DNA from: Candidatus Spongiisociaceae bacterium
Lineage (GTDB): Bacteria; Actinomycetota; Acidimicrobiia; Spongiisociales; Spongiisociaceae
Direction of reading: 5' to 3'
DNA: 64,000 nucleotides
Assembly: GCA_965262915.1 (NCBI GenBank)
Contig: OZ253564.1
Location: 544,001 to 608,000, forward strand
Numbering within the stretch: the first letter of the stretch is position 1; each line of letters opens with the position of its first letter. Both the position numbers and the translations under genes were made by a program. Below, in pieces: positions 1 through 12,330 of this stretch. A model generated the notes under the pieces. That model did not search any database, was not told where the DNA came from, and was given only the letters and a program-made list of their open reading frames with translations.

Positions 1-2
1 TG

Positions 3-695
3 GCCTGTGGCGACAGCGGCAAGGTGCTGGCGATGATCCCGGGCCGTACGAAAGGGTCGCTGGCCAGGTTCTTTAGGGATCAAGGACCCCAGTGGTGCCG
101 GCAGGTGGAGATAGTCGTGAGCGACGGGTCCCGCTCATATCAGGCCGCAATCGCACAGTATCTGCCAGCTGCTCGCCATGTGCTCGACCGGTTCCACGTC
201 GTACGCTGGTTCACCCAAGGCCTCACTCTGGTACGCAGAGAGCTGCAGCGCCGCGACCCCCACCGGCGTCCCCCAACGTTCGAGCCGGATCTGTCCCGAG
301 CCCGCTTCACCCTCCTGCGCCGGGCCGATCACCTAACCGAAGCCCACCAGGCGCACCTCGACAGACTGTTCGATGCTCATCCCCGTCTCCGCACCGCGTG
401 GGACGCTCTCCAAGAGCTCTACCAGCTATATCAGGCAGACGACCTCGACGGGGCCAACCAGGCGCTCGGACGGTTCGCCGACCTCTACGCCACCGGCCAG
501 ATACCCCAATACCACCAAGTCGTGGACACCATCATCGCATGGGGAGAACAGATCTTGGCCTACCACACCACCCAACGACGGGTATCCAACGGACCCCCCG
601 AAGGGATCAACAACCTCCACCAAGTCCTACGACGCGTCGCCCACGGCTTCACCAACTACGACAACTACGCCGCCCGAGGAATCCTCGTAACATGA
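3..695 (+). CDS. ISL3-family transposase (5' part outside window)
   Basis: Motifs VVSDGSRSY, HVLDRFHV, SNGPPEGINN, AHGFTNYDNY. Confidence 0.9.
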   Translation, partial: ACGDSGKVLAMIPGRTKGSLARFFRDQGPQWCRQVEIVVSDGSRSYQAAIAQYLPAARHVLDRFHVVRWFTQGLTLVRRELQRRDPHRRPPTFEPDLSRARFTLLRRADHLTEAHQAHLDRLFDAHPRLRTAWDALQELYQLYQADDLDGANQALGRFADLYATGQIPQYHQVVDTIIAWGEQILAYHTTQRRVSNGPPEGINNLHQVLRRVAHGFTNYDNYAARGILVT

Positions 696-736
696 CCCCA
701 CACCGAGCGCCAGCACAGCCAAAACCCACGATGCTC

Positions 737-1969
737 CTATGTTTTGCAAATCGGTTGTTGGGTGAGCCAGTGTTGGTATCGGGTAGCGAGGTGGTGGTTG
801 TGGTGGAGGCCTCGTTCGAGTTGTGATAGGACGGTGGGCTGCGTGTCGAGGTGGTGGGCGGCGCGGGTGAGGGTGATTCGGGCTTGGGTTCGGCGGTGGC
901 GTAGGTCGGTTCCGTGGGGTGTTGGGGGCGGGTCGGTGAGGAGGTGGTATATCTCGCGGGCGATGTGGCGTTTCAGGCAGCGGATTATTTCGGTGTGGGT
1001 TTTTCCTTCCGCTTCGCGTCTGGTGACATATTCTTTGGTGGCAGCGTCGGTGCGCATTCGGTTGGTAGCGATCCGCCATAGCGCGTTGTTTGCTTGGCGG
1101 TTGCCGCCTCGGTTGAGACGGTGCCGCACTATCCGTCCCGATGATGCGGCTACGGGGCTGACACCGCAGAGGGCCGCGAAGGCTGCTTCTGAGTTCATAC
1201 GTCGTGGGTTGTCACCAGCAGCGACCAGCAGAGCAGCGGCGGTGTCGGGTCCTACTCCGTAGGCGGCCAGCAACGCAGGGTTGGCCCGTGCGCAGAGACC
1301 GCGGATCTGTTTGTCGACCTGTGTGATCTCGGTGTCTAGATTCTGGTATCGGCGGGCTAGAAGCCGCAGTGCCCGCTTGGCGTATGCCGCAGTGGTCTGC
1401 GCTGTGCCCGGACGGAAGCGGGCACAGACCTTGACCTGTGTCCGGGTCGGGAGATCCCGGAGTTGGTGTTTGACCTGCTCAGGAGCGGTTACTACCAGAG
1501 CGTGCAGCTGGTTGGCGGCCTGGGTGCGGGCTTTGACCGCGGAGCGGCGAACTACCCGCAGCATCCTGGTGGCTTCTACCGGTCCGTCGCCCGTCTTGGG
1601 TAGGGCGGTCGCTTCACCGTTGAGAGCAGCCCGGGCTGCTGCTTCGGCGTCGGTGGTGTCATCCTTGCCCCGCCGCCGGCGAAGCTGGCGGTTGGGACGG
1701 TTCACCTCCACCACACCGATACCCGCCTCGGCAAGATGACGTGTGAGCCCAGCGCCGTAGCTGCCCGTTCCTTCCACCCCGACCCGTGTGATCCGACCCC
1801 ACGACTCCATCCAGGCGACCAGTTGGGCATAACCGGAGGTATCAGCGCCGAACTGATCGGATCCCAACAGGCGACCCGCGCCATCCACCACCGCCCCAAC
1901 GTGGAAATCCCGATGTGTGTCCACCCCGCCAACCACACCTACCCCATCGGCCCTAACTTGCTCCGCCAT
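737..1969 (-). CDS. IS110-family DEDD recombinase with C-terminal XRE-like HTH extension
   Basis: GVDTH, VGVEGTGSYG, GKDDTTDAEAAARA, ASSG, RHRLNRGGNRQAN; AAAGG upstream of ATG 1969. Confidence 0.93.
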   Translation of the reverse strand: MAEQVRADGVGVVGGVDTHRDFHVGAVVDGAGRLLGSDQFGADTSGYAQLVAWMESWGRITRVGVEGTGSYGAGLTRHLAEAGIGVVEVNRPNRQLRRRRGKDDTTDAEAAARAALNGEATALPKTGDGPVEATRMLRVVRRSAVKARTQAANQLHALVVTAPEQVKHQLRDLPTRTQVKVCARFRPGTAQTTAAYAKRALRLLARRYQNLDTEITQVDKQIRGLCARANPALLAAYGVGPDTAAALLVAAGDNPRRMNSEAAFAALCGVSPVAASSGRIVRHRLNRGGNRQANNALWRIATNRMRTDAATKEYVTRREAEGKTHTEIIRCLKRHIAREIYHLLTDPPPTPHGTDLRHRRTQARITLTRAAHHLDTQPTVLSQLERGLHHNHHLATRYQHWLTQQPICKT

Positions 1970-2019
1970 GTGCTCGCCTTTCGTCGGCTGCCTAGAATCC
2001 AACCCCCGGAGCCGGGCAG

Positions 2020-2170
2020 AGCGGCGGACAGAACACTCACGGTGGAGAAGTCGAAGGCTCCTATCAAGTCACCCCGCTCCCCGGTTCAGGGTTCCTAGCC
2101 GGGGCCAGGTCGACAGATCGTGGGAAAGGCACCAAAGGCCAGTTTTCGCGTGAGTCAGACCCGGCCCCAA
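2020..2170 (-). ncRNA. IS110 bridge RNA (target-binding loop, then donor-binding loop); ends approximate
   Basis: Minus-strand segments CGCGAAAA (2143-2150) and CCCACGAT (2117-2124) match the insertion site; ATAGGAGC (2057-2064) and GAGTGT (2033-2038) match the element ends. Confidence 0.8.
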
Positions 2171-2218
2171 CCGGAAACCCTATAAGTATGAGTGTTTTCG
2201 CGCAGCCTCAGAAGGTTT

Positions 2219-2551
2219 CTACGGGAGCGGTTCGATGTCCTCCACCTCGTACCGGCCGTACTGTCCCGATTTTTCGGGTCGCCAGTCCCCAACCCCGACC
2301 CGGCGTCCCCCAATGTCCAACCATCGCAGCAGCTGGTCGCGGTCTACGAGTTCGGGGTCTACCTCGACGAGGATCGTGGCTGCCCACTGGTCGAACCGGG
2401 CCCGGGTACGCAACAGACGGCTCCCCCCGACTCTCACCCCGGTGGTGAACTGGCAGCTGCGGGCCAGCTCCTCGGCGGTGGTGCCCGGGCTCCGGTCGTG
2501 GTGGAAGCGCTCCACTGCTTCCACCACCAGCCCTTCCCGAACTTTGGGGCC
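2219..2551 (-). pseudogene. 5'-truncated RAMP/Cas7-like protein of phage type
   Basis: C-terminal RTRARFDQW...GGRRVGVGDWRPEKSGQYGRYEV glycine-rich loop; the upstream part of the ORF does not look protein-like. Confidence 0.6.
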
Positions 2552-3104
2552 GTGCCGCAACCCCCAAGGAGAGGGACGCCGCCTCATGAGGGCTGTGCCG
2601 CAGCTGCGTGTGCCAGTCACAAGGCGAAACTGAACACAGCCTCCCTCCACTACCAGCCGGAACGCCCACCGAGAGACAAAGCACGACGGATCAGAGCAAA
2701 AGCCATCCCACAAATCAGCGACGAACTCGCCCGAGCTGGCGGAACCGTCGAAGGCATGGGAACCCATCAACGCCAAAGACCGCCGACAACCCGTCCCCGA
2801 ACGTGGCATCACCCACACGTCGGCTTAAAACCAGGCTCGGGAAGAACCTCCGATACGGGACGGGTACCGGTCCGCCCGCGGCTTCCTAGCGTAGGAGGTC
2901 TGTACTCCCTCGAGTTCTGCACTCCCGGCGTCCTCGAGGAGATCGGTCGTGTGCCGATATTGGGTGACCACGAGGTCGGCCGCAACAGCGATACTGCCCA
3001 CCGAGATCAGGGCTACGTTCTCAGCGAACCATCAACGGCGAGACCTCAACCCGTTCGATATGCGGTGTCAAACACAAGATGCGTGCGCAGGAGCCGCTGC
3101 GTCA

Positions 3105-4334
3105 TCATTCGAGAGCGGCGGCCCACCGGGACAGATGATCCAACGGAATCCGGACATTGCCGGGTATTCGTCTCCGAGCCCTGGTGGCTCGCGCCTCGTC
3201 CTCGCGCATTGCATCCCGTAACTGTGAACTCTCGTTCTCTTCCGATAGCTGCATTTCCCATGCGCGTGCGAGAGCGAAGTGCCGTTTCAATTGGTGATAG
3301 TCAAGCTCGTTGGGGCGTCTAGCGCCCCCGCCGCACACACTACACTCACACGCAAACGCTCGGTCCACTTCCACCAACGAGGTGGCTGCAGCTGTTGGCA
3401 TATAAGCGTGCAGCTTCCGCACATAATATCGAGCAGGTGCAGCACCAGTAGCATCTAGTGTCGGCCAGTCTCGTGACTCGCTATATCCCAATCCGTTATT
3501 AAACCCAGCTAGCCCAACCTTACCCAAGAGTATGCTGAAGTATCCACCGTAGAGGTTCATAAGTTTACGGTTCCCACTCAGTACAGATATCGTCGCTCTA
3601 AGTGAACGAAGATCAGCTACAGACCTCGTACGCTCATCGAATCCTGGTACCCAGAAGAAGATCCTGGAGGAGAGATGATCTGGGACGCAGAGAATTGCTT
3701 CTTCAAGCATCGACAACTCGGTGATCGCAACGACAGGTGAGATTTCATTTGGACGATCAAGACGTTGAGCTGAAGCCCAGAGCCGTTGTGTCACCTCCCA
3801 CCAATCGCTTGATCTGGTTCTAGCCGCGAAGTACGGGCACAACAAGTATGTCGGGCTCTTCGCATCGCTTTCGGATTCCACGTTGCCAGACCCACCTTGG
3901 GCACGATCTAACAGGGACTTATAGCGGTTCAACTTCTCAGCTATATGTTCGGCTCTACCACCGTAGTCGCGTTGAAAGCTGATCATCGATGAGACTACTT
4001 CGTCGCATACGTCAGAGGAATAAAACTCGGCCGGGAACCGGACGCCCTGACCTTCTTGCTCTGACGGTCGACCGAGTCTCTCTACCACCGATTGACCCAT
4101 CGTAGATGCAAGGGTGTAGTGTGAGGCACGCGGATCTCTGATAACCTCCTGGAAGAGAGGGGTTCGCGGCTCAATGAAGTAGTCAAGTCCTGACGACAGC
4201 ACGAAGCCCGCAGTCGCGTCCTGATAATACGAAGCGATCGTAGACGGAACACTCATCACGTCAAAGCAGCGTCGGACTTCTAGATTACGAAAACTAGCTT
4301 GATCTGAGTTCCCGTAGGCGAGGCAATGGAGCAT
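3105..4334 (-). CDS. Uncharacterised 409-aa protein, TGT/queuine-tRNA-ribosyltransferase-like with C-terminal CxCxxC...H Zn site
   Basis: FACECSVC...LKRHF motif; alternating alpha/beta pattern; start overlaps the upstream stop (TGATG). Confidence 0.6.
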   Translation of the reverse strand: MLHCLAYGNSDQASFRNLEVRRCFDVMSVPSTIASYYQDATAGFVLSSGLDYFIEPRTPLFQEVIRDPRASHYTLASTMGQSVVERLGRPSEQEGQGVRFPAEFYSSDVCDEVVSSMISFQRDYGGRAEHIAEKLNRYKSLLDRAQGGSGNVESESDAKSPTYLLCPYFAARTRSSDWWEVTQRLWASAQRLDRPNEISPVVAITELSMLEEAILCVPDHLSSRIFFWVPGFDERTRSVADLRSLRATISVLSGNRKLMNLYGGYFSILLGKVGLAGFNNGLGYSESRDWPTLDATGAAPARYYVRKLHAYMPTAAATSLVEVDRAFACECSVCGGGARRPNELDYHQLKRHFALARAWEMQLSEENESSQLRDAMREDEARATRARRRIPGNVRIPLDHLSRWAAALE

Positions 4335-4756
4335 CAGACGGATGCTCCCATACTCGCTTCCTCCATATTGGAGTTCACGAGTCGATCACGGATCCGTGTG
4401 ACCGGTGGCGTTCGGATTGCTTGCTGAACTATGCACGTTCTTTCAGTGTCGACGGAGACAACGCCGATCCGATACCGCGCTGCTTCACTCAGCCTCTCTG
4501 GGGTCACCTGGTGCACAAGGATCGCTACGTAGACGTAGTCTACACAGTATTGGTGCAAGAAGGCCTGCGCCAATAGGCGCCCCCAGTGTGAGAGCTTGGC
4601 CTCCACGGCAAAGAGCGCTGACGGTGTTTTTACCAAGATGTCCATCCGTGCTTGATCATGGCAGCGTACCTCTACATGACTGCTAGCCTCTGCTCCCCAT
4701 AGCTCGGCAACATCTCGTCGAAGGTCGGCAACCATCTCAGCCTCAGAATTGTACAT
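4334..4756 (-). CDS. Small PD-(D/E)xK restriction-endonuclease-fold protein
   Basis: E...RMDIL...AVEAKL..W...LAQA...YVYVA signature; TAATG coupling to the upstream gene. Confidence 0.65.
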   Translation of the reverse strand: MYNSEAEMVADLRRDVAELWGAEASSHVEVRCHDQARMDILVKTPSALFAVEAKLSHWGRLLAQAFLHQYCVDYVYVAILVHQVTPERLSEAARYRIGVVSVDTERTCIVQQAIRTPPVTRIRDRLVNSNMEEASMGASV

Positions 4757-5343
4757 TAGCTTGTCTCCGGTCCGTGCCGGACGAGGGCAGTCAGGCGCCG
4801 CTCAGTTAAGCGAGCGTAGATGAGCAGTATGCTGTATCCCATGGCAGCAACAATGGTCGCTGCAAACAGCGCCCAAGAGCCCTTCGATAGAGTGACTCCG
4901 TCGTTCCGGAGCGCAATCACCAACGGCACTATGAATCCTAGGAAACACAAGCCGCCAACGATAGAACATAGTCGTCGTGCCCGTCTCAGCTGACTTGAAC
5001 GCCTATATAGAGTGTCGAACTCGAATACGTTGAAGTGGTACGCAGCGATAGCGTCCAGAACTTCCGGTTTGTCAAAGGTGTATTTTAGTTCCGTCTCCAA
5101 ACGGTCTTCCTCGCTTTGCTGAAGGTATAATCGCCTGATGGGGATCATATGCGTGTACAGCAGCCTGATCATTTGTGATCCTATGCTGTTCCGGAGCATT
5201 CGTACCTGCTCGTTTAAGCTATTACCTCCTGCCTTCGTATCGCGGCGATCGTGTCGCCACATAAGCGTGACACTGATCACTGCAACAGCGGCGATAACGA
5301 TATCGTAGACGGTCTGCCAATAATTAGGCATAGCCTGCGACAA
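4756..5343 (-). CDS. Uncharacterised membrane protein, about 3 TM helices (start may be ATG 5331)
   Basis: One N-terminal and two C-terminal hydrophobic stretches; in operon. Confidence 0.7.
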   Translation of the reverse strand: MSQAMPNYWQTVYDIVIAAVAVISVTLMWRHDRRDTKAGGNSLNEQVRMLRNSIGSQMIRLLYTHMIPIRRLYLQQSEEDRLETELKYTFDKPEVLDAIAAYHFNVFEFDTLYRRSSQLRRARRLCSIVGGLCFLGFIVPLVIALRNDGVTLSKGSWALFAATIVAAMGYSILLIYARLTERRLTALVRHGPETS

Positions 5344-5349
5344 GCCTCA

Positions 5350-5889
5350 CTAGTCGGAGTGAACTATCTTGTCACGAATAACGGATCTGACTGCATAGTC
5401 AGGATACTTAGTGTATACATAATAGATCAGAGTCTGCAGAGGCAGGCCGGCATAAGTGTCCTTGATTCGTCTGATCTCAGCCTCAAGCTGAGGACGATTA
5501 CGAAACAAATAACGAGCGATACTTTTACCATCGTCGGTGAGTATGAACTGGCGCTCGTAGGATATTTCTGTCGCCATACCTGAGTAAAGCAATTCTTCAG
5601 CACGATCAAGTTCTGAATCAGTGAAGTTCCGCTGCTCCTCTATTAGGCCAGCCTCCTCTAGGAGTTCGACGGCCTCGTATACCTCTTTGGAGTAAGGCCC
5701 GTAGTGATAAGGCACAAAATCGAAGGTCTCATCGAGAGCTTCCCCATAGTTGCATTCTTTGTCTACGAGGAACAAGAGTTTCTCGAGGCGCGTGATTCCG
5801 TTGATTCGATTGGTAGCTTGTTCCCAACGAGTTGAAGTTGCCAGTAGCAAAAGCACCAGATCTGGAGCTATCAGCGGTTCGTTCTCCAC
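5350..5889 (-). CDS. YwgA/DUF4065 (Panacea/SocA-like) family protein
   Basis: GITRLEKLLFL...FDFVPYHYGPYSKEV...LTDDG...YVYTKYP. Confidence 0.7.
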   Translation of the reverse strand: MENEPLIAPDLVLLLLATSTRWEQATNRINGITRLEKLLFLVDKECNYGEALDETFDFVPYHYGPYSKEVYEAVELLEEAGLIEEQRNFTDSELDRAEELLYSGMATEISYERQFILTDDGKSIARYLFRNRPQLEAEIRRIKDTYAGLPLQTLIYYVYTKYPDYAVRSVIRDKIVHSD

Positions 5890-6711
5890 AAGACGCTCCT
5901 ATCGTGACTAGGCTGCGGACTCAACCGAATGGTCGACTCGTGCTCGCTATACAGTACCTCGCAGGGACGCTCCGTATCCGTACGAGGTGCTAGACGGAGT
6001 TTACTCAAACGAGGTCCCGATCCGGGTCGGTTCTGACTTCCAGATATGTGAAGGAGTGGGGGAGTGTCCCCTCTCGAATGTCGTCCGTATCGATGGTCGG
6101 GGGAGGAGTTGATCAGCGAATGGTGGTACGAAGAGTGGGACTTCACCACTCGGCTGCCGCCTACCACAGCCGATTACCTGACTGTTCACCCCTGTTCGGC
6201 AACGGAGGATTCCTCCGCTGGGAGGGTTCAGGACGTGGCGGGGAGGAAGCAGACCAGGTTTCTCACGACAACTAGCACCATAGCTCCCCATCGAGGTCCT
6301 CGCGGGGTGGGTGATGATCCCGGACTCGGCGTGGAGCTGTCCGTCGGCGTCTACGGTGACGGCCGGGGCCGGGCCGCCGTCTACTACCTCGATGTGTCCG
6401 TTCTGGTCGATGCGGAACAGTACGCTCACGGCCATGCTCATTCCCCTTCCGTGCCGGTGGGTCTGAGGGTACCGGGAGGGTGTGACAGAACGGCCGACGG
6501 GGGCGTTGCGCACGTTGGGTCCTTCGTCATCGGACGGGTTCGTGCCGCATCGGGCGAGCGTTTGCCCGGATGGGGTTCCTTGGTAGGTTCGGCCCGGCGC
6601 GAGTACGTGGCCGCCACCGTCTAACAGGCAACCACACGGGGCGCAGAGCACTGCGTTATCACGTTTCGCCCCGGCTGCGCCTGCTAACAGCAGCGATCAG
6701 ATTGCCATCAC

Positions 6712-6790
6712 TGGACCGCTCCGGTGGATAGTCCTGATCTTAGGGAGGCTTGAGTGGTCGGGTGGGTTCTGGGTTGGTGGGTGAGGGCTC
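6712..6790 (-). mobile_element. Probable IS3-family right-end remnant
   Basis: TGGACCGCTCCGGTGGATAGTCC terminus-like sequence after a short ORF tail; a second TGAACCGTACCGGG end lies nearby. Confidence 0.3.
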
Positions 6791-6903
6791 TCTGAACCGT
6801 ACCGGGTCATTCACACCATCCAGGTTCAACAACCGAAACCCTCAACAACGACCACGAAGGCAAACAGCGATCGCTGGCCCCTCCCCTGCTAAACGAAGTA
6901 CGG

Positions 6904-7074
6904 CCGGTCCAGCATGGCAGCGGCGATGGTGCTGTCGGAGAAAATGTCTCCCCAGGAGGCGACGCTGCGGTTGGTGGTCAGGATTATGGAGCCTTTCTGG
7001 TAGCGGCGGGAGATGACCTGGAAGAGGGAGGCGGCGTCTTCGGCGGGCATGGGCAGATAGCCGAGTTCGTCGGC
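6904..7074 (-). pseudogene. istB: IS21-family helper ATPase fragment
   Basis: Manual translation: DELGYLPMPAEDAASLFQVISRRYQKGSIILTTNRSVASWGDIFSDSTIAAAMLDR. Confidence 0.85.
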
Positions 7075-7176
7075 CTGGTATGTTGATAAGGGGGCAGGAT
7101 GGTCGTCCCTGGTCGACTGTGGGTCGGATTGTGGGACAGAGCGGCTAGAATAGCCGTTTATACTGGGGTTTTACCC

Positions 7177-7223
7177 TCCCTGATAAGGATGAGGTCCCTG
7201 GTTCAAATCCAGGTGGGCCCACC
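7177..7223 (+). other. 3' half of tRNA-Ile(GAT), att-site duplication of an integrated element
   Basis: TCC-CTGATAA-GGATG-AGGTC-CCTGG-TTCAAAT-CCAGG-TGGGCCC-A with no 5' half or D-arm; TGTGGG direct repeats just upstream. Confidence 0.85.
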
Positions 7224-7346
7224 CGGACGGTGTTATCCACGCCGGGCGTCGAACCTGGCTCCGTTGGGTTGGAGCACCGCTGCCGTGACGTCAGGCATGT
7301 GTCACCGTCTGCGATCACCAAGTACTGTCGCTTGAAGGAGCGCCGC

Positions 7347-7766
7347 ATGACCGCATCGGGCAGCAGCGAACGGATGATCACGTTGGAGGACTTCCACCAT
7401 TCCCTCGATGACGAGACCACCGTGAAGGCGAAGCCGTCAGACACGGTCGACGAGGTGGAAATGCGGATGGACAGTCACAACATCGATCAGGTCCCGGTCG
7501 TCGATCCGAAGTCAGAACTGATGGTACTGACCCGTAGGATGATCTCGAGAGTGCCTCCGATAGAGAGGACTGCCATGCGGGTTTCCCAGGTGCCGGACAT
7601 CGACCAAATGCCGTGGGCGTGGCCCGCCTCCACACTGCTGCCCGACGCGGCGCCGGATCTCGTCGAGCACGACTGGGTCATCACCACCGACGAGGATGAC
7701 AAGCCGGTAGGGCTGGCAACGGTAGGTGATGCCCTCAAGGAGGCCTTGTCTCGCCTTAACGGTTGA
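7347..7766 (+). CDS. CBS-domain protein
   Basis: MDSHNIDQVPVVD...KPVGLATVGD; RBS AAGGAG. Confidence 0.7.
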   Translation: MTASGSSERMITLEDFHHSLDDETTVKAKPSDTVDEVEMRMDSHNIDQVPVVDPKSELMVLTRRMISRVPPIERTAMRVSQVPDIDQMPWAWPASTLLPDAAPDLVEHDWVITTDEDDKPVGLATVGDALKEALSRLNG

Positions 7767-7930
7767 GGAGCCGGCCCCTAACCCACCGCTCCCGTTGATC
7801 TCACCACCGAACATCGGGTACCAACCGGGTTGCTCGCAACACGCTCATCGGCGTGGGCGAACGTGGAGGCACTGCGGGCAGTGGTGTGTAAAGACTTCGG
7901 ATAGCCTCCAGTAGACTCGGCCGCACGCCG

Positions 7931-8326
7931 ATGACTCTCAGGGGAGAAACTGAATTGGTAACCGCGGGGTCTCTTCGAGTGGTGGACTATCCGCCTCCGT
8001 CCGACAAAGCAGTGGATGAAGCAATAACCAAAGCCGTCGCGGGCTATAGGCGAGTATTCGGCGAACGGCTAGCTCAGGTCTGGCTCTTCGGTTCGCGAGC
8101 ACGGGGGGACCATCGACCCGACTCGGATGTTGATCTGTTGGTCGTCCTACATGAGGAAGGCCCGATGCACTCGGAGTCCAAGCTGCTATGTGCCGTCTCG
8201 GGTCCTATCCGTCTGTCCTCCGGCGTGTTCATCGACGGGCATCCGACTACTCTGGCGTGCTTCGAAACAGGCAATGACGATTACCACTACTTCATCAGAC
8301 GCGAAGGGCGGCGAGTAGATGTATGA
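7931..8326 (+). CDS. MNT nucleotidyltransferase (antitoxin-type)
   Basis: LFGSRARGDHRPDSDVDLLVV. Confidence 0.9.
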   Translation: MTLRGETELVTAGSLRVVDYPPPSDKAVDEAITKAVAGYRRVFGERLAQVWLFGSRARGDHRPDSDVDLLVVLHEEGPMHSESKLLCAVSGPIRLSSGVFIDGHPTTLACFETGNDDYHYFIRREGRRVDV

Positions 8327-8700
8327 AGGGGATATCACCTTCCTGATGGAGTACTGCCAACGGGACTTGGGCTACGCGCAGGGTCTGATCGTGAAAGGAG
8401 ATTACGCCAAGAGCATCGGGGAAAGCTATTACGCCGTGTTCTATGCGGCCAAAGCAGGACTGCTTCACCTGGGTATCAGATCAAAGAGCCACCAGAGCGT
8501 ACAGGCGGGGATAGACAGTATCGTTGAGAGAGATTCTGTCTCCTGCCTTGGGAAACGTACCCGCAATACTCTTGAGCATGCGCAACGAGGCGGTCTATCG
8601 CTTTGCAAGACGTGATTGGAATGTGCACGACGCCACCAATTGCTTGACCATGGCAAGAGGATTCGTAGAGGTGATAGAGGCCATCCTTGCTACTTCATAG
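8319..8700 (+). pseudogene. HEPN-domain protein, frameshifted at (GA)4 tract 8526-8533
   Basis: YYAVFYAAKA...KSH in the first frame; MRNEAVY...AILATS* in the shifted frame. Confidence 0.85.
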
Positions 8701-8842
8701 CTAGTAGGCATCCTGAGGAAGATTGTGTCGAACGGTCATGGAGAGCGCTGCTCGCGGATAACCCGGCGGCACCGTGGCTTCGGTCAGTGCGCGCTATTCG
8801 CGCTCGCGGGCCGTTCGATCACCACACCGGAGCCTACGGCTG

Positions 8843-9427
8843 CTACCGGCTCCGGCCCAACCTCCGGCTGCGCGCCCAGGACAGCGCCACGCTTGAGGTC
8901 ACCGCCATCATCGCTGCCAGGACGTTGAACAGGATGTCCTCGGGATCGAAGACACGGCTGGGAAGGAACGCCTGGACACATTCGTCGATCACTCCGACCA
9001 CGGACGCCGCGACAACGGCGATCAAGGCGGGTATCGGGACGGGGCGACCCTGTTCCACCCGCTCCTTCAGTGCTTCGTGGATGAAGACGGCAACTACTCC
9101 GTATTCGATGAGGTGTGTGCGCTCCTCCGGAAGCGCCATCCGGACGAGCACCATGAAGTACGCGGCCCCGATACCCAGCGCGATGCCTATCTCTGCGGCG
9201 CCCGGCCGCCTCCTCAGCCCCTGGACCAGGACAGTTGCTCCGACGAGGAGCATACCGAGGGCGAATGAGGCTACGAGTACCCCCTCTTCTCGCAGCACCC
9301 CGGACAGAGTTCGCGCCAGGCCCAGAGTCGAGTAGATCGCCACCACGACAGCCAAGGTCCATGCCCAGAGCCGCCGTTCCCGACCCGAGGTGAACATGGA
9401 CGACGAGGACCCCTCGTCGGATGTCAC
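8843..9427 (-). CDS. VanZ-family membrane protein
   Basis: ERTHLIEYG, GVIDECVQAFLPSRVFDPEDILFN. Confidence 0.8.
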   Translation of the reverse strand: MTSDEGSSSSMFTSGRERRLWAWTLAVVVAIYSTLGLARTLSGVLREEGVLVASFALGMLLVGATVLVQGLRRRPGAAEIGIALGIGAAYFMVLVRMALPEERTHLIEYGVVAVFIHEALKERVEQGRPVPIPALIAVVAASVVGVIDECVQAFLPSRVFDPEDILFNVLAAMMAVTSSVALSWARSRRLGRSR

Positions 9428-9462
9428 CGGGGTATCTCCTCAGTGTTGCGCCTGGCTCTCAG

Positions 9463-10701
9463 TCATTCGATGATGGCGAGTTCCCTGGTGTTGGAGGTGA
9501 GTACCTCGGCGCCGTCTTCGGTGACCGTTACCGTCTCGCTCACTCCGACGCCTGCGAAGCCGACGTGGCGGGCCATGGCGCGTACGTGGAATGTGTGGCC
9601 GGGTTTGAGGGTCGCGTAGCTGGCGGGTCTCGGTGAGGGCAGGTATTGCTCGGTGGCGATCTGCAGTCCGGGGCAGTCTCCCCACCCGGCCGGGAAGCTG
9701 AGCCCCATCGAGTAACCGCGGTTGCCGTCCACGTATACCCCTTCGGGGAGTGAGAACAGCCGCTGGGAGGCCTCCTCGGCCAATGGCGTGACCTCGGCGC
9801 CGGGTCGCATGAGCCGGATGGTGTTCTCCACGGCGTCCTTGCACGCCTCCCACATCTCCACCCACAGCGGGTTGTTGGGCTGTCCCAGGAAGCCGGCCCG
9901 GATCATCGGTGACGTGTAGCGGTTCACGCAGGCCCCGAACTCCATGAGGATCGCCTCGCCCGGTTCGATCGGTTTGCGGCGGAAGGTGGTGTGGGGGATA
10001 CCCGAACGCCTGCCCACCGTCACGATGGGTTGCAGGCCCATCCGCTCGCTCCCGCCGCCGATGATGGCGTCGTAACCGGCGTTGGCTATGTCGTTGTCGA
10101 TGGCGCCGGGGCGGATGGCTTCGCGGGCCGCCTCCATGCCGAGCACCGTCAGGCGACCGGCCCGGCGGTGCTGCTCGATCTCGGCGGGGCTCTTCTGCGA
10201 GCGAGCCTCCTCGAGAACGTTGCGCATGGGTACCCACTCCGCATCGATGGCGTCCGAGACGCCCTCGAAAACGTCGACCGCGGCCCGGTTGTAGTCCCAG
10301 CCGAGCCTCTTGCCGGACAGCCCGCGGTCCTTGGCCAGGTCGATCAGGCCGCCGGTGGTGTTGGCGGCCCAGGGGAAGGTGACCACGTCCTCGACCCACG
10401 ACGAGGTCAGGGTATTGAAAGCCTCGAAGTCGTCGATCATCAGCGTCGGTTCGCCCTCGGCCGGGATGACCAGGGCGGCCGGCGCCCCGGCGGCCAGGGT
10501 CTCGTATCCCGTTATCCAGCAGATGGGCGGCAGGTAGGTGCTGAACAGGTAGTCGAGGCCCGCGTCGGTCACCATCTGCTGGACCTTGCGGTAGCGGCCC
10601 CGGTACTCCTCGAGCGGGAAGGTCAAGCGGAGCAGGTCCCCGCGGATGGCGTCGACATGGGCCGGAGGCTCGAACACCTTGTAGCGCTTGCTATCCCCCA
10701 C
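9463..10701 (-). CDS. M24/creatinase-family hydrolase (ectoine hydrolase DoeA-like)
   Basis: Creatinase-like N-domain, KSPAEI, RSGIPH; metal-ligand positions look substituted (EFGACVNRYTSP); RBS GAGGAGG. Confidence 0.8.
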   Translation of the reverse strand: MGDSKRYKVFEPPAHVDAIRGDLLRLTFPLEEYRGRYRKVQQMVTDAGLDYLFSTYLPPICWITGYETLAAGAPAALVIPAEGEPTLMIDDFEAFNTLTSSWVEDVVTFPWAANTTGGLIDLAKDRGLSGKRLGWDYNRAAVDVFEGVSDAIDAEWVPMRNVLEEARSQKSPAEIEQHRRAGRLTVLGMEAAREAIRPGAIDNDIANAGYDAIIGGGSERMGLQPIVTVGRRSGIPHTTFRRKPIEPGEAILMEFGACVNRYTSPMIRAGFLGQPNNPLWVEMWEACKDAVENTIRLMRPGAEVTPLAEEASQRLFSLPEGVYVDGNRGYSMGLSFPAGWGDCPGLQIATEQYLPSPRPASYATLKPGHTFHVRAMARHVGFAGVGVSETVTVTEDGAEVLTSNTRELAIIE

Positions 10702-10944
10702 GACCGAACCTCCTCTCTGGAACGCGGCCGACTGTAACAGGGGGAGGATGCGGGCATCGGAGCGAACGTAACGGCGGCATGACCGTAGGAGGGTGCTGAG
10801 CAATCCATCCGCGGCCCACCACTCAACTCTTGAATGCCTGGTCGGCGAGTGGTGGGCCCTGGCAATCGTCACTGTTCAGCACCCTCCTAACCTGTTGGAC
10901 CGAGCGTTGATGTAGCCGGGTGGTCCGTCGAGGGAGGAGTCCGG

Positions 10945-11478
10945 ATGGCTGAGTACGTGGAACTGCTCGAGTTCCTGAGGAGCGAGGGAACCGCCGAGGT
11001 CCAACATTCCAAGGTCGACTTCATGGCCCACCTGGTCGGCGTACATCAGGTTCTTGTCTCGTGGCAATGCTCCGAAGCGGTGTGCTTGGGAGGCCTGTTC
11101 CACTCGATCTATGGAGCGGAGGGTTTCAGCGACGGAGCGCTCGATCTCCGGCGCCGGCCGGAGATTCGAACTCTCATCGGAACCGCAGCCGAGCACCTCG
11201 CTTTCGTGAACAGCTCGATGACTTACGACTCCTTCGACGCGACCCTACGAGAAGGTCCGCCTCACCGCGTGGTCAATCGGTTCACCGGTGCGCCCATCGA
11301 GTTGACCGACCAGGAATTCGCCGATCTCTCCCGGATACAACTTGCGGACTGGCTCGAACAGGTCGAGCGTTTCCCGGACAACTGGGACTATCGACGGCAG
11401 GTCTACCGCACCATCGCAGAACGCATCGGAGGCCGGGCATCGGCTACCTACGAAGAGGTCTTCTCCCGCGAGCCCTGA
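10945..11478 (+). CDS. DUF6817-like HD-related protein
   Basis: HS...AHLVGV...W...GLFHSIYGAEGF. Confidence 0.7.
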   Translation: MAEYVELLEFLRSEGTAEVQHSKVDFMAHLVGVHQVLVSWQCSEAVCLGGLFHSIYGAEGFSDGALDLRRRPEIRTLIGTAAEHLAFVNSSMTYDSFDATLREGPPHRVVNRFTGAPIELTDQEFADLSRIQLADWLEQVERFPDNWDYRRQVYRTIAERIGGRASATYEEVFSREP

Positions 11479-11502
11479 CGGCCGGCCTTCCGGGTGGAAC
11501 CC

Positions 11503-12330
11503 CTACCCCGCAGCTGGCAGGGATCTCCAATGAGCGTTGATGTCCTCCCCGTTTGCGATCCAAGCGTCCATCTCCCGGGCGTGCATGATGGTGCGCCGTA
11601 GCGTGTCGATCCGGTACGGACGGCCCGTGACCTGGGGATGGTTGACGAGGGTGAACAACCCGCCCACCTCCCGGATGCCTTCAAGTTCGGACGACCACAG
11701 CGACACGACGTGGTCGTTGGTCATGACCGGATTGACGTGCGGCGCCGGGTACGCATTGGGCGAAACCATGGCGAATCCCCAGTCGTCGGCTACCCAGTGC
11801 ATCGGGAGTTCGAGAAGTGACAGGCCCTCGAGATCATGAAAGTACGGAATGACAGAGTCCATGTGGTGCGACGTGTACTCGACGCCTCGCTCGGCCAGTA
11901 CACGGTTGGTTACCGGGCTGATCTCCGCGACCGGGGCGCGGTGGCCGATGGGCGACCGGCCCGACATCTCGCTAAGGATGTGGATACTCCGCTCGACTAC
12001 CTCGACTTCCTCATCTTCCGACAGGAGATCCGGTCGCTCGTGCATGTGGCCGTGCAAACCGAGCTCGTGTCCCCCGGCGAGGATCGCTTCAACCGCTCCC
12101 GGATAGCGTTCGGCCACCCACGTGGGTACGAAGAAGGTGGACCTCACTTCGAGTTCGGCCAGCACATCGAGGATGCGGTAGACGCCAACCTTGGGGCCGT
12201 ATGCGGCCTGCGACATGGTGATCGGGAGATCGGCGTTCCGCCGGTCGACCGAGAGCAGCCACGACTCGCCGTCGAGGTCGAACGAGAAGAATGCGGCTAC
12301 GTTCCTGCCACCGGGCCATTTCGGGTCCAT
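11503..12330 (-). CDS. Polysaccharide deacetylase family (PuuE-like)
   Basis: FSFDLD, TFFVP, GHELGLHGHMHE, GHRAP, HPQVTGRP. Confidence 0.9.
   Translation of the reverse strand: MDPKWPGGRNVAAFFSFDLDGESWLLSVDRRNADLPITMSQAAYGPKVGVYRILDVLAELEVRSTFFVPTWVAERYPGAVEAILAGGHELGLHGHMHERPDLLSEDEEVEVVERSIHILSEMSGRSPIGHRAPVAEISPVTNRVLAERGVEYTSHHMDSVIPYFHDLEGLSLLELPMHWVADDWGFAMVSPNAYPAPHVNPVMTNDHVVSLWSSELEGIREVGGLFTLVNHPQVTGRPYRIDTLRRTIMHAREMDAWIANGEDINAHWRSLPAAG

Follow-up and report, generated by a model that had tools for sequence, protein, structure and literature searches.

The 64,000-nucleotide (nt) stretch analysed here, referred to as the window, covers positions 544,001 to 608,000 of contig OZ253564.1 from Candidatus Spongiisociaceae bacterium (assembly GCA_965262915.1). 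At 3105–5889 it carries a cassette of four head-to-tail open reading frames (ORFs) on the minus strand, encoding proteins of 179, 195, 140 and 409 amino acids (aa). An earlier interpretation made from the sequence alone, called the original prediction below, had proposed that these genes form an undescribed defence operon. The four genes are as follows.

5350–5889, minus strand: gene 1, 179 aa, GTG start with AGGAG before it; YwgA/SocA-Panacea (DUF4065)-like protein whose middle region resembles a winged helix
4756–5343, minus strand: gene 2, 195 aa, start ambiguous (TTG at 5343 or alternative ATG at 5331); membrane protein in a variable effector slot
4334–4756, minus strand: gene 3, 140 aa; minimal PD-(D/E)xK (restriction-endonuclease-fold) protein
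3105–4334, minus strand: gene 4, 409 aa; predicted tRNA-guanine transglycosylase (TGT)-fold TIM barrel with a C-terminal zinc subdomain (C329, C331, C334, H352)

Both the ORF list and the sequence confirm the co-directional layout described in the original prediction, in which the last three genes are coupled by stop-start overlaps. The stop codon of gene 2 shares one base with the start of gene 3 (TAATG at 4756), as does the stop of gene 3 with the start of gene 4 (TGATG at 4334), and 6 nt separate gene 1 from gene 2. The cassette had also been described as more AT-rich than its flanks, and its GC content is indeed 0.526, compared with 0.637 in the left 3.1 kb, 0.626 in the right 6 kb and 0.656 in the remaining window. 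A cassette GC content below that of the flanks was found in 13 of 13 other loci, with differences of 0.018 to 0.177.

In a scan of one genome per species, the same four-gene order was found at 15 genome loci distributed over Actinomycetota, Verrucomicrobiota, Dormibacterota, Planctomycetota and Chloroflexota, the groups represented being Acidimicrobiia, Opitutaceae, Dormibacteraeota, Pirellulales, Phycisphaerales and Chloroflexota. Searches of these loci with the window proteins (tblastn) detected gene 1 in 14 of 15 (not in L007), gene 3 in 13 and gene 2 in 7, and the gaps are filled by ORFs of fitting size and position. Overlaps of 1 or 4 nt recur in other loci and in the RefSeq annotation of pSI-1, a mobilizable plasmid of Arthrobacter sp. 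AK-1, where four overlapping genes annotated as 'hypothetical protein' encode 184, 200, 148 and 409 aa. Because the same gene order recurs in 15 loci of several phyla and on the Arthrobacter plasmid, the four-gene set is not a product of chance. Within the host's order gene 4 was present in 1 of 201 genomes, that of the host itself, and in none of 7 congeners; the cassette is horizontally acquired.

Metagenomes were scanned using a gene 4 subfamily that is 20–25% identical to the window protein, yielding 80 loci, all found through gene 4. Profile hidden Markov models (HMMs) identified gene 3 in 69 of the 70 loci with more than 480 nt of upstream sequence (absent in L099) and gene 1 in all 46 loci with more than 1900 nt upstream. 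The co-occurrence of homologs anticipated in the original prediction therefore holds for the nuclease and the Panacea-like gene even in a distant subfamily. One genome locus, L007 (6980–9068), is a degraded copy with no gene 1 homolog, a gene 4 match that begins at residue 54 (344-aa ORF) and a PIN gene upstream on the opposite strand.

Three hydrophobic segments are present in the gene 2 protein (residues ~11–29, ~125–143 and ~157–175), one N-terminal and two C-terminal with about 90 soluble residues between them, which bears out its reading as a membrane protein; the pattern is kept in 12 homologs of only 12–36% identity. The protein matched the SLATT model NF033634 weakly (E 0.023, 14.6 bits, cut-off 41) and had no match in PADLOC-DB. 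To survey the position more widely, 97 sources were examined, 69 of which hold both gene 1 and gene 3. Between these two genes lies a protein with at least two hydrophobic segments in 43 cases, a PIN protein in 19, a PIN_3 protein in 4, an insertion in one (L004), another protein in one and nothing in one (L093). Where the gap between gene 1 and gene 3 is short it encodes a PIN-domain protein, and all 16 of those tested scored above the Pfam cut-offs (12 PIN, 4 PIN_3). At L093 (4943–7308), the sole locus of its kind, gene 1 and gene 3 are direct neighbours and no effector gene separates them; at L004 (2142–9218), gene 2 is parted from gene 3 by an insert of approximately 4.9 kb that includes an ORF bearing HTH_38, which suggests an insertion of the insertion sequence (IS) type. 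A quick maximum-likelihood tree was built from 57 gene 4 proteins; the effector label needs 7 changes on it, and the well-supported branches force at least 3 changes for the membrane type. The gene 2 position is an interchangeable slot for a membrane protein or a PIN RNase.

The gene 1 protein gave Pfam matches to SocA_Panacea (E 0.0028, 19.0 bits; gathering score 25.7) and RTP (E 0.0049). In PADLOC it matched the candidate model PDC-M19A (7e-16), the C-terminal region of some Type I S subunits (1e-11) and the DarG linker (1e-4). Homologs number 269, some of them named YwgA, SocA family or DUF4065 by their sources, and PF13274 is annotated in 7 of 120 among the matches listed; strongly conserved motifs include GITRLEKLLFL and YGPYS. 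Residues 72–138 of the gene 1 profile align weakly to winged helices of the GntR/MarR type, and against the PDB the profile gave weak winged-helix matches only (E 0.12 and 1.4). In the ESM Atlas, genes 1 and 2 fell into unnamed clusters and one archaeal cluster (Panacea 21%, PadR 15% of members). Taken together, the sub-threshold Pfam match, PDC-M19A and the homolog names uphold the YwgA/Panacea-like assignment, to which a winged helix can be added, and gene 1 is a probable regulator or antitoxin-type component. According to the accessible text of the Panacea study (PMC8832971), the main toxin classes neutralised by PanA antitoxins are membrane disruptors and RNases. Because the slot holds members of these same two classes, the proposal of a Panacea-controlled effector in the original prediction gains support.

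The 409-aa protein encoded by gene 4 had no matches in Pfam, NCBIfam or PADLOC, and its 219 relatives found by a word-indexed search are all named 'hypothetical'. When 1.84 billion cluster representatives (clusters at 50% identity) were searched in full with an HMM, 831 family members scored E ≤ 1e-3, 667 of them with E ≤ 1e-10. No credible Pfam domain was found in 25 distant representatives, none of 55 superfamily members matched PF01702 (TGT) or PF14350 (Beta_protein) even at E ≤ 10, and the window protein itself had no match to PF01702 at E ≤ 1. Gene 4 founds a family for which neither Pfam nor NCBIfam has a model.

An AlphaFold2 model of the gene 4 protein, built on a 45-sequence alignment, had a predicted local distance difference test score (pLDDT) of 91.8 and a predicted template modelling score (pTM) of 0.91. 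When the model was compared by VIA-align with 48,161 representative chains, the top five matches were all TGT-superfamily proteins.

ArcTGT, 1iq8: structural score 20.0 (further columns 3.2, 285)
Bacterial TGT, 3unt: structural score 18.0 (further columns 3.7, 293)
DpdA, 7ui4: structural score 16.6
QTRT2, 6fv5: structural score 16.1
Cap10, 9ntn: structural score 13.0
Best unrelated TIM barrel: structural score 12.1

Foldseek likewise placed TGT first, although weakly (E 1.7e-3, TM 0.43–0.5). The model has the fold of the superfamily, a (β/α)8 barrel to which a C-terminal hairpin and a CxCxxC...H zinc subdomain are appended, in agreement with the TGT-like barrel of the original prediction. Going by this model, the kinship of gene 4 with TGT is detectable in structure only. 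Searches of PDB chains with phmmer and the 45-sequence profile returned noise and no TGT, and hhalign in local mode aligned nothing except CxCxxC between the gene 4 alignment and 19 TGTs of the host's order (a comparison set from which L021 of genome G016 was left out). Foldseek against BFVD gave no match at E ≤ 0.001, with phage queuine ribosyltransferases among the weak rows.

Residue conservation was assessed in 55 members of the gene 4 superfamily, down to 20% identity, and the barrel strands carry the conserved residues at their C-terminal ends. All 55 members have an acidic residue at position 55, where strand 3 ends (D in 50, E in 5), and position 286, in the strand 8 loop, is acidic in 48 (45 E and 3 D, with Q in 3). 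R/K288 and Y304 are present in 55/55, P167 and Y168 in 54/55, G263 in 53/55, R302 in 52/55 and Y262 in 49/55, and position 234 is E in 46 and D in 3. The CxCxxC...H motif noticed in the original prediction corresponds to C329, C331 and C334 (45–46 of 55), and the conserved histidine is H352 (53/55) and not H347 (14/55). The order of these motifs appears to parallel the TGT active site, namely D102...Q107, E235, M260-G261, D280 and C318/C320/C323/H349, in which Asp102 and Asp280 (Zymomonas TGT numbering) are the catalytic acidic residues. As judged from motif order and secondary structure, strand 3 of gene 4 is followed by an acidic residue and Gln, strand 6 by Glu and strand 7 by an aromatic-Gly pair; an acidic residue in the strand 8 loop comes next, then W-P-T and then the zinc site. 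The classical versions of the TGT motifs are present in the host's own TGT.

TGT-fold enzymes are known for the insertion of 7-deazaguanine bases into tRNA and DNA, and one was recently shown to link a base of this kind to an immune protein. The host genome, a single contig of 5.06 Mb that is 96% complete, yielded no QueC (PF06508), and QueF gave a sub-threshold match only. A canonical TGT and QueA are encoded side by side elsewhere in the genome (L016 413–2640), and the host probably relies on salvage of a queuosine precursor and does not make preQ0 itself. With no QueC in the host, 7-deazaguanine chemistry is unlikely, as is the insertion of host-made preQ0 by the gene 4 protein. QueC was clear in one of five other carrier genomes, marginal in one and not found in three, one of the three being a complete 4.5-Mb chromosome; since the carriers are mostly metagenome-assembled genomes, absence from them is not proof.

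The supply of 7-deazaguanine bears on one alternative, restriction-modification of the Dpd kind, in which the enzyme would swap a base in host DNA (7-deazaguanine or another), the nuclease would cut unmodified DNA, and genes 1 and 2 would be accessory. The conserved zinc site agrees with such a role, and so do the translational coupling of the nuclease gene to the enzyme gene, its presence in 69 of 70 loci and the placing of the cassette among systems of the restriction-modification type. The QueC and QueF results argue against it, and the four genes of the cassette include no ATPase and nothing resembling DpdB or DpdC. Judging from motif order, gene 4 appears to lack an Asp at the strand end that corresponds to the guanine-binding Asp of TGT, and a swappable membrane/PIN slot is foreign to restriction-modification systems. 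We consider Dpd-like restriction-modification very unlikely.

The model of the gene 3 protein (pLDDT 91.8) has the PD-(D/E)xK restriction-endonuclease fold with its D...(D/E)xK motif. E52, K54 and Q64 do not vary among 22 sequences, in which D39 reaches a conservation of at least 90%, and together with the fold this substantiates the D...EAK...Q nuclease signature first proposed; from these residues, the nuclease site looks intact. The gene 3 profile matched no PDB sequence, and in PADLOC the protein matched just PDC-S26 (1.7e-4 over 42 residues). A possible relative is cII of the phage P4 gop-beta-cII system, which, as described in the accessible text of Rousset et al. 2022 (PMC9122126), protects E. 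coli against lambda and P1 and in which gop is toxic without beta. No NCBIfam family was matched by more gene 3 members than that of P4 cII, sce7726_fam (NF033832), but the matches amount to just 3 of 22 (best E 0.001). This HMM was not matched by the window protein, and hhalign of gene 3 with P4 cII aligned D..ExK..Q..GVV at a probability of 1.1%.

A complex of the gene 3 and gene 4 proteins was predicted with an ipSAE of 0.59, compared with 0.02 for the best control; contacts agreed between runs to 90% or more, with a partner pLDDT of 83 or above. Of 80 solved complexes 58 attained the ipSAE mark, as did 2 of 110 mismatched pairs, with only 7 of the 80 solved complexes, and both mismatches, attaining it at 0.60 or under. 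The prediction therefore lends weak support to a complex of the two proteins.

A nuclease joined to the enzyme is also a component of a second alternative, a sensor and executioner for modified bases. Here the enzyme would flip and then excise or trap an unusual base of phage DNA or RNA, the nuclease would cut at the lesion, and the effector would provide abortive infection as a second line. TGT chemistry opens with cleavage of the N-glycosidic bond through a covalent enzyme-nucleic acid intermediate, and the ends of strands 3 and 8 carry conserved acidic residues, as described above for positions 55 and 286. The coupling of the two genes and the weakly supported complex are compatible with joint action, and no base-supply genes would be required, consistent with the absence of QueC. 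No TGT-fold protein is known to act as a plain glycosylase, and the P4 precedent, as far as its published description goes, suggests the role of a negative regulator instead. A sensor and executioner is thus unlikely.

The flanking ORFs of the 15 genome loci were screened with PADLOC. At 8 of the 15 genome loci a known or candidate defence gene is found no more than about 6 kb from the cassette and at 7 none was seen nearby, and a PADLOC match at E ≤ 1e-15 was obtained for 9 of 23 metagenome loci with long flanks and not for 14; these are raw proportions, not set against a background. The neighbours are listed below.

L008 (1–17245): DrmD-DrmMI-cassette-DrmA-DrmB; class 1 DISARM with the cassette between drmMI and drmA
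L002: HmaA-cassette-HmaB
L003: HmaB-cassette-HmaC
L006: cassette-HmaB
L001: Ppl
L007: LmuB/SIR2/PIN
L009: PifA-like, Mrr, Type I methylase
L011: SoFic, HNH, Type I R subunit
L013: Type II methylase
L010: TrwC relaxase beside the cassette (Pfam scan)

In the flanks of L004, L005, L012, L014 and L015 nothing was recognised by PADLOC. The L002, L003 and L006 loci are not independent since they belong to congeners (Aldehydirespirator genomes). The DISARM and Hma loci may be an insertion hotspot for the cassette or may supply functional partners. In PADLOC-DB v2.0.0 (2023) no single system was matched by all components, and only gene 1 matched a candidate model (PDC-M19A); the statement in the original prediction that no named system matches the set is correct for this database.

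These surroundings bear on a third alternative, in which the cassette serves addiction or stabilisation: a toxin-antitoxin pair of the Panacea type, supplemented by two accessory genes, would favour retention of an island or plasmid and would have no anti-phage role. In favour of it, the Panacea-like gene 1 is immediately followed by the gene for a membrane or PIN protein. Copies of the cassette lie on a mobilizable plasmid and beside a relaxase, that of the window stands beside IS elements, and plasmid toxin-antitoxin pairs are known addiction modules (PMC8832971, accessible text). The two supposed accessories are instead the most conserved parts of the cassette and almost never lost (gene 3 in 69 of 70 loci; 80 loci found through gene 4). 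Many loci are chromosomal and lie within defence systems such as DISARM and Hma, and the closest analogue, gop-beta-cII, gives phage protection (PMC9122126, accessible text). A pure addiction role is accordingly quite improbable.

Surrounding the cassette in the window are the following features.

3–695: ISL3 transposase fragment, truncated by the window edge
737–2002: IS110-family transposase, seemingly whole, 421 aa
2219–2818, minus strand: 199-aa ORF directly downstream of the cassette, with no Pfam or PADLOC match
6889–7050: IstB fragment, 53 aa
7165–7221, plus strand: tRNA-like match
7931–8615, plus strand: nucleotidyltransferase (131 aa; NTP_transf_2, Polbeta) overlapping a HEPN protein (98 aa)

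The ISL3, IS110 and IstB matches together form an insertion-sequence graveyard around the cassette, confirming the IS debris mentioned in the original prediction. The pair at 7931–8615 looks like an MNT/HEPN-type toxin-antitoxin, and its nucleotidyltransferase matches PADLOC PDC-S09 (1e-20). No recognisable gene was found in the approximately 1 kb upstream of gene 1 (5890–6880). Predicted promoters and terminators in 2800–6300 were no more frequent than in shuffled sequence, with none upstream of gene 1, and neither flanking direct repeats nor terminal inverted repeats were found in 2000–7600.

The further claim that the cassette lies in an element integrated at a tRNA-Ile gene found weak support. 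A tRNA-like match at 7165–7221 was found by Rfam over 1–12000 (23.8 bits, below the gathering score of 29), its sequence containing a GAT (Ile) anticodon loop, with a good 3' half and an unpaired 5' half; it may be the remnant of an old attachment site. The only other Rfam match in 1–12000 was a spurious one to RNase MRP. ARAGORN found no tRNA-Ile in the window, no integrase was found in 1–12000, and the nearest integrase-family matches in the genome lie approximately 15 kb and 39 kb to the left of the window start.

The domain reading of the original prediction (TGT-like, nuclease-fold, Panacea-like and membrane proteins) was correct, and none of the tests run that could have told against it, including those of the barrel fold, of homolog co-occurrence and of matches to catalogued systems, did so. 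What is new is an unmodelled, zinc-bearing TGT-fold family at the centre of the operon, and a conserved Panacea/nuclease/TGT core combined with a swappable effector. In our view the cassette is a modular conflict operon that was acquired horizontally, is most likely directed against phages and probably works like the gop-beta-cII and Panacea modules, and we give this reading a probability of roughly 0.55. By analogy with these modules we infer a defence function, toxicity of gene 2, a restraining core protein and the nature of the enzyme's substrate.

In this proposed conflict operon, the core would consist of the Panacea/winged-helix protein, the small PD-(D/E)xK nuclease and the zinc-bearing TGT-fold enzyme, accompanied by one interchangeable, putatively toxic effector. 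In uninfected cells the core would hold the effector silent. An infection cue would then lift this control, and the freed effector, here presumably a membrane-damaging protein, would halt growth before the phage cycle ends. For the TGT-like enzyme we predict N-glycosidic chemistry on a macromolecular substrate, by which a nucleobase would be exchanged, removed or transferred; the enzyme may act jointly with the translationally coupled nuclease.

Several observations weigh against the interpretation as an anti-phage conflict operon. No homolog of gene 4 was found in phage records by tblastn or in IMG/VR, and gene 4 is not detectably homologous to P4 beta, so the parallel with gop-beta-cII may be one of convergence. 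The link between gene 3 and cII is weak by each of the measures given above, and gene 1 falls below the Panacea cut-off of Pfam. At matched divergence of gene 4 (g409), gene 1 is no more diverged between loci with different effector types than between loci sharing a type (0.310 vs 0.311 and 0.361 vs 0.336, from 29 loci whose pairs are not independent), unlike what a tailored direct antitoxin should show. The catalytic equivalences between gene 4 and TGT, drawn from motif order and secondary structure and not from residue-level superposition, are for that reason inferred ones. The 7 genome and 14 metagenome loci at which no defence genes were seen also count here, and toxicity, neutralisation and phage protection are ascribed to the gene 4 family solely by analogy.

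A bolder form of the proposal, which we put forward tentatively, is that a widespread but unrecognised branch of the TGT superfamily has been recruited to immunity and carries out base exchange or excision without needing a supply of 7-deazaguanine. Together with the mini-nuclease and the Panacea protein, it would read or mark a nucleic acid or a partner protein and thereby gate suicide effectors that are either membrane pores or PIN RNases. If true, this would represent a new enzymatic principle of infection sensing or toxin control, distinct from Dpd, Cap9/Cap10 and P4 beta. The gene 4 family would be the fourth or fifth immune use of the TGT fold and would occur in hosts unable to make preQ0, which raises the question of its base chemistry. 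A fixed three-gene core with a swappable membrane/PIN effector would offer a clean genetic handle on the gating of a toxin by an enzyme, and Arthrobacter sp. AK-1 with plasmid pSI-1 is a cultured source of the cassette.

A literature search returned no description of the four-gene set; the supplementary tables of the Panacea paper and of the TIM-B preprint discussed below lie outside its scope and could list the gene 4 family. The combination can be called undescribed in that neither PADLOC-DB nor this literature search gave a match, although a related concept is in print in the form of gop-beta-cII and the predicted TIM-B systems. The operon is probably related to a known anti-phage system without having been described itself.

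Among TGT-fold proteins, the bacterial and archaeal TGTs (TGT, ArcTGT) differ from gene 4 in that the profiles align over CxCxxC alone, and the host has its separate canonical TGT and QueA, while the distribution of gene 4 is patchy and island-borne. DpdA (7ui4) differs in that there is no sequence-level membership, no helicase partner alongside the missing DpdB and DpdC, and no QueC in the host. Cap10 of type IV cyclic oligonucleotide-based antiphage signalling systems (CBASS; 9ntn; bioRxiv 10.1101/2025.04.06.647259, accessible text) is accompanied by components that the cassette lacks, a QueC-like Cap9 and a cGAS/DncV-like nucleotidyltransferase (CD-NTase), and its structural score of 13.0 hardly exceeds that of unrelated TIM barrels (12.1).

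Several features are shared with PanA-PanT pairs as the accessible text of PMC8832971 describes them. The Panacea-like gene 1 lies six nt upstream of gene 2, within the ≤100 nt spacing used there, the gene 2 classes (membrane protein, RNase) are the main validated PanT classes, and in one validated PanT a coiled-coil precedes C-terminal transmembrane helices, as in gene 2. The cassette differs in being a conserved operon of four genes, above the limit of three in that study, whose pipeline excluded neighbourhoods suggesting operons of more than three genes. Gene 1 also scores 19 bits against the Pfam cut-off of 25.7, and it follows the core and not the effector type.

The closest known system is gop-beta-cII of phage P4, one of the computationally defined 'TIM-B systems'. 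In a preprint of October 2026 (bioRxiv 10.64898/2026.10.19.760177, accessible text for all statements here), P4 beta (PF14350) is united with the TGT barrel, TIM-B adjoins many alternative effectors and a restriction endonuclease (REase), and it is proposed to restrain its effector via an activity resembling nucleobase transfer. No PF14350 candidate was found in the host genome. The sole PF14350 match in 301 genomes of the phylum, at L119 (G264:C19:511–4572), adjoins a 403-aa ORF whose HExxH motif (HELAH) suggests a metallopeptidase, and this neighbour may fit the metallopeptidase partner described in the preprint.

Gene 4 and P4 beta belong to different families, as the absence of PF14350 matches in the 55 members indicates, and a broad gene 4 alignment compared with P4 beta by hhalign gave probabilities of 0.1% and 0.04%. 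Gene 4 proteins are 400–450 aa long and keep the CxCxxC...H zinc site, whereas P4 beta has 355 aa and no CxCxxC. The nuclease of the cassette is a minimal, co-directional and translationally coupled protein of 140 aa, in contrast to P4 cII, which has 264 aa and is encoded on the opposite strand. The conserved Panacea/winged-helix gene is an addition relative to gop-beta-cII, and the effectors here are three-segment membrane proteins and PIN RNases; neither PIN nor Panacea is named in the TIM-B contexts of the accessible preprint text.

What the cassette and gop-beta-cII have in common, as a likeness of architecture only, is a small effector, a TGT-like barrel and an REase-fold protein, with a weak sequence link of gene 3 to the cII/sce7726 family. 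As far as the accessible sources describe the P4 and TIM-B systems, a TGT-related TIM barrel lies directly downstream of a small toxic effector (in P4 a predicted protein with two transmembrane segments), the effector position is swappable between loci, an REase-fold protein is linked to the pair, and carriage on mobile elements and in defence hotspots is shared as well. The comparison may help to explain how the validated gop-beta-cII system works. The operon is best classed as a toxin-linked conflict system akin to gop-beta-cII/TIM-B and to PanA-PanT, and not as a member of PF14350.

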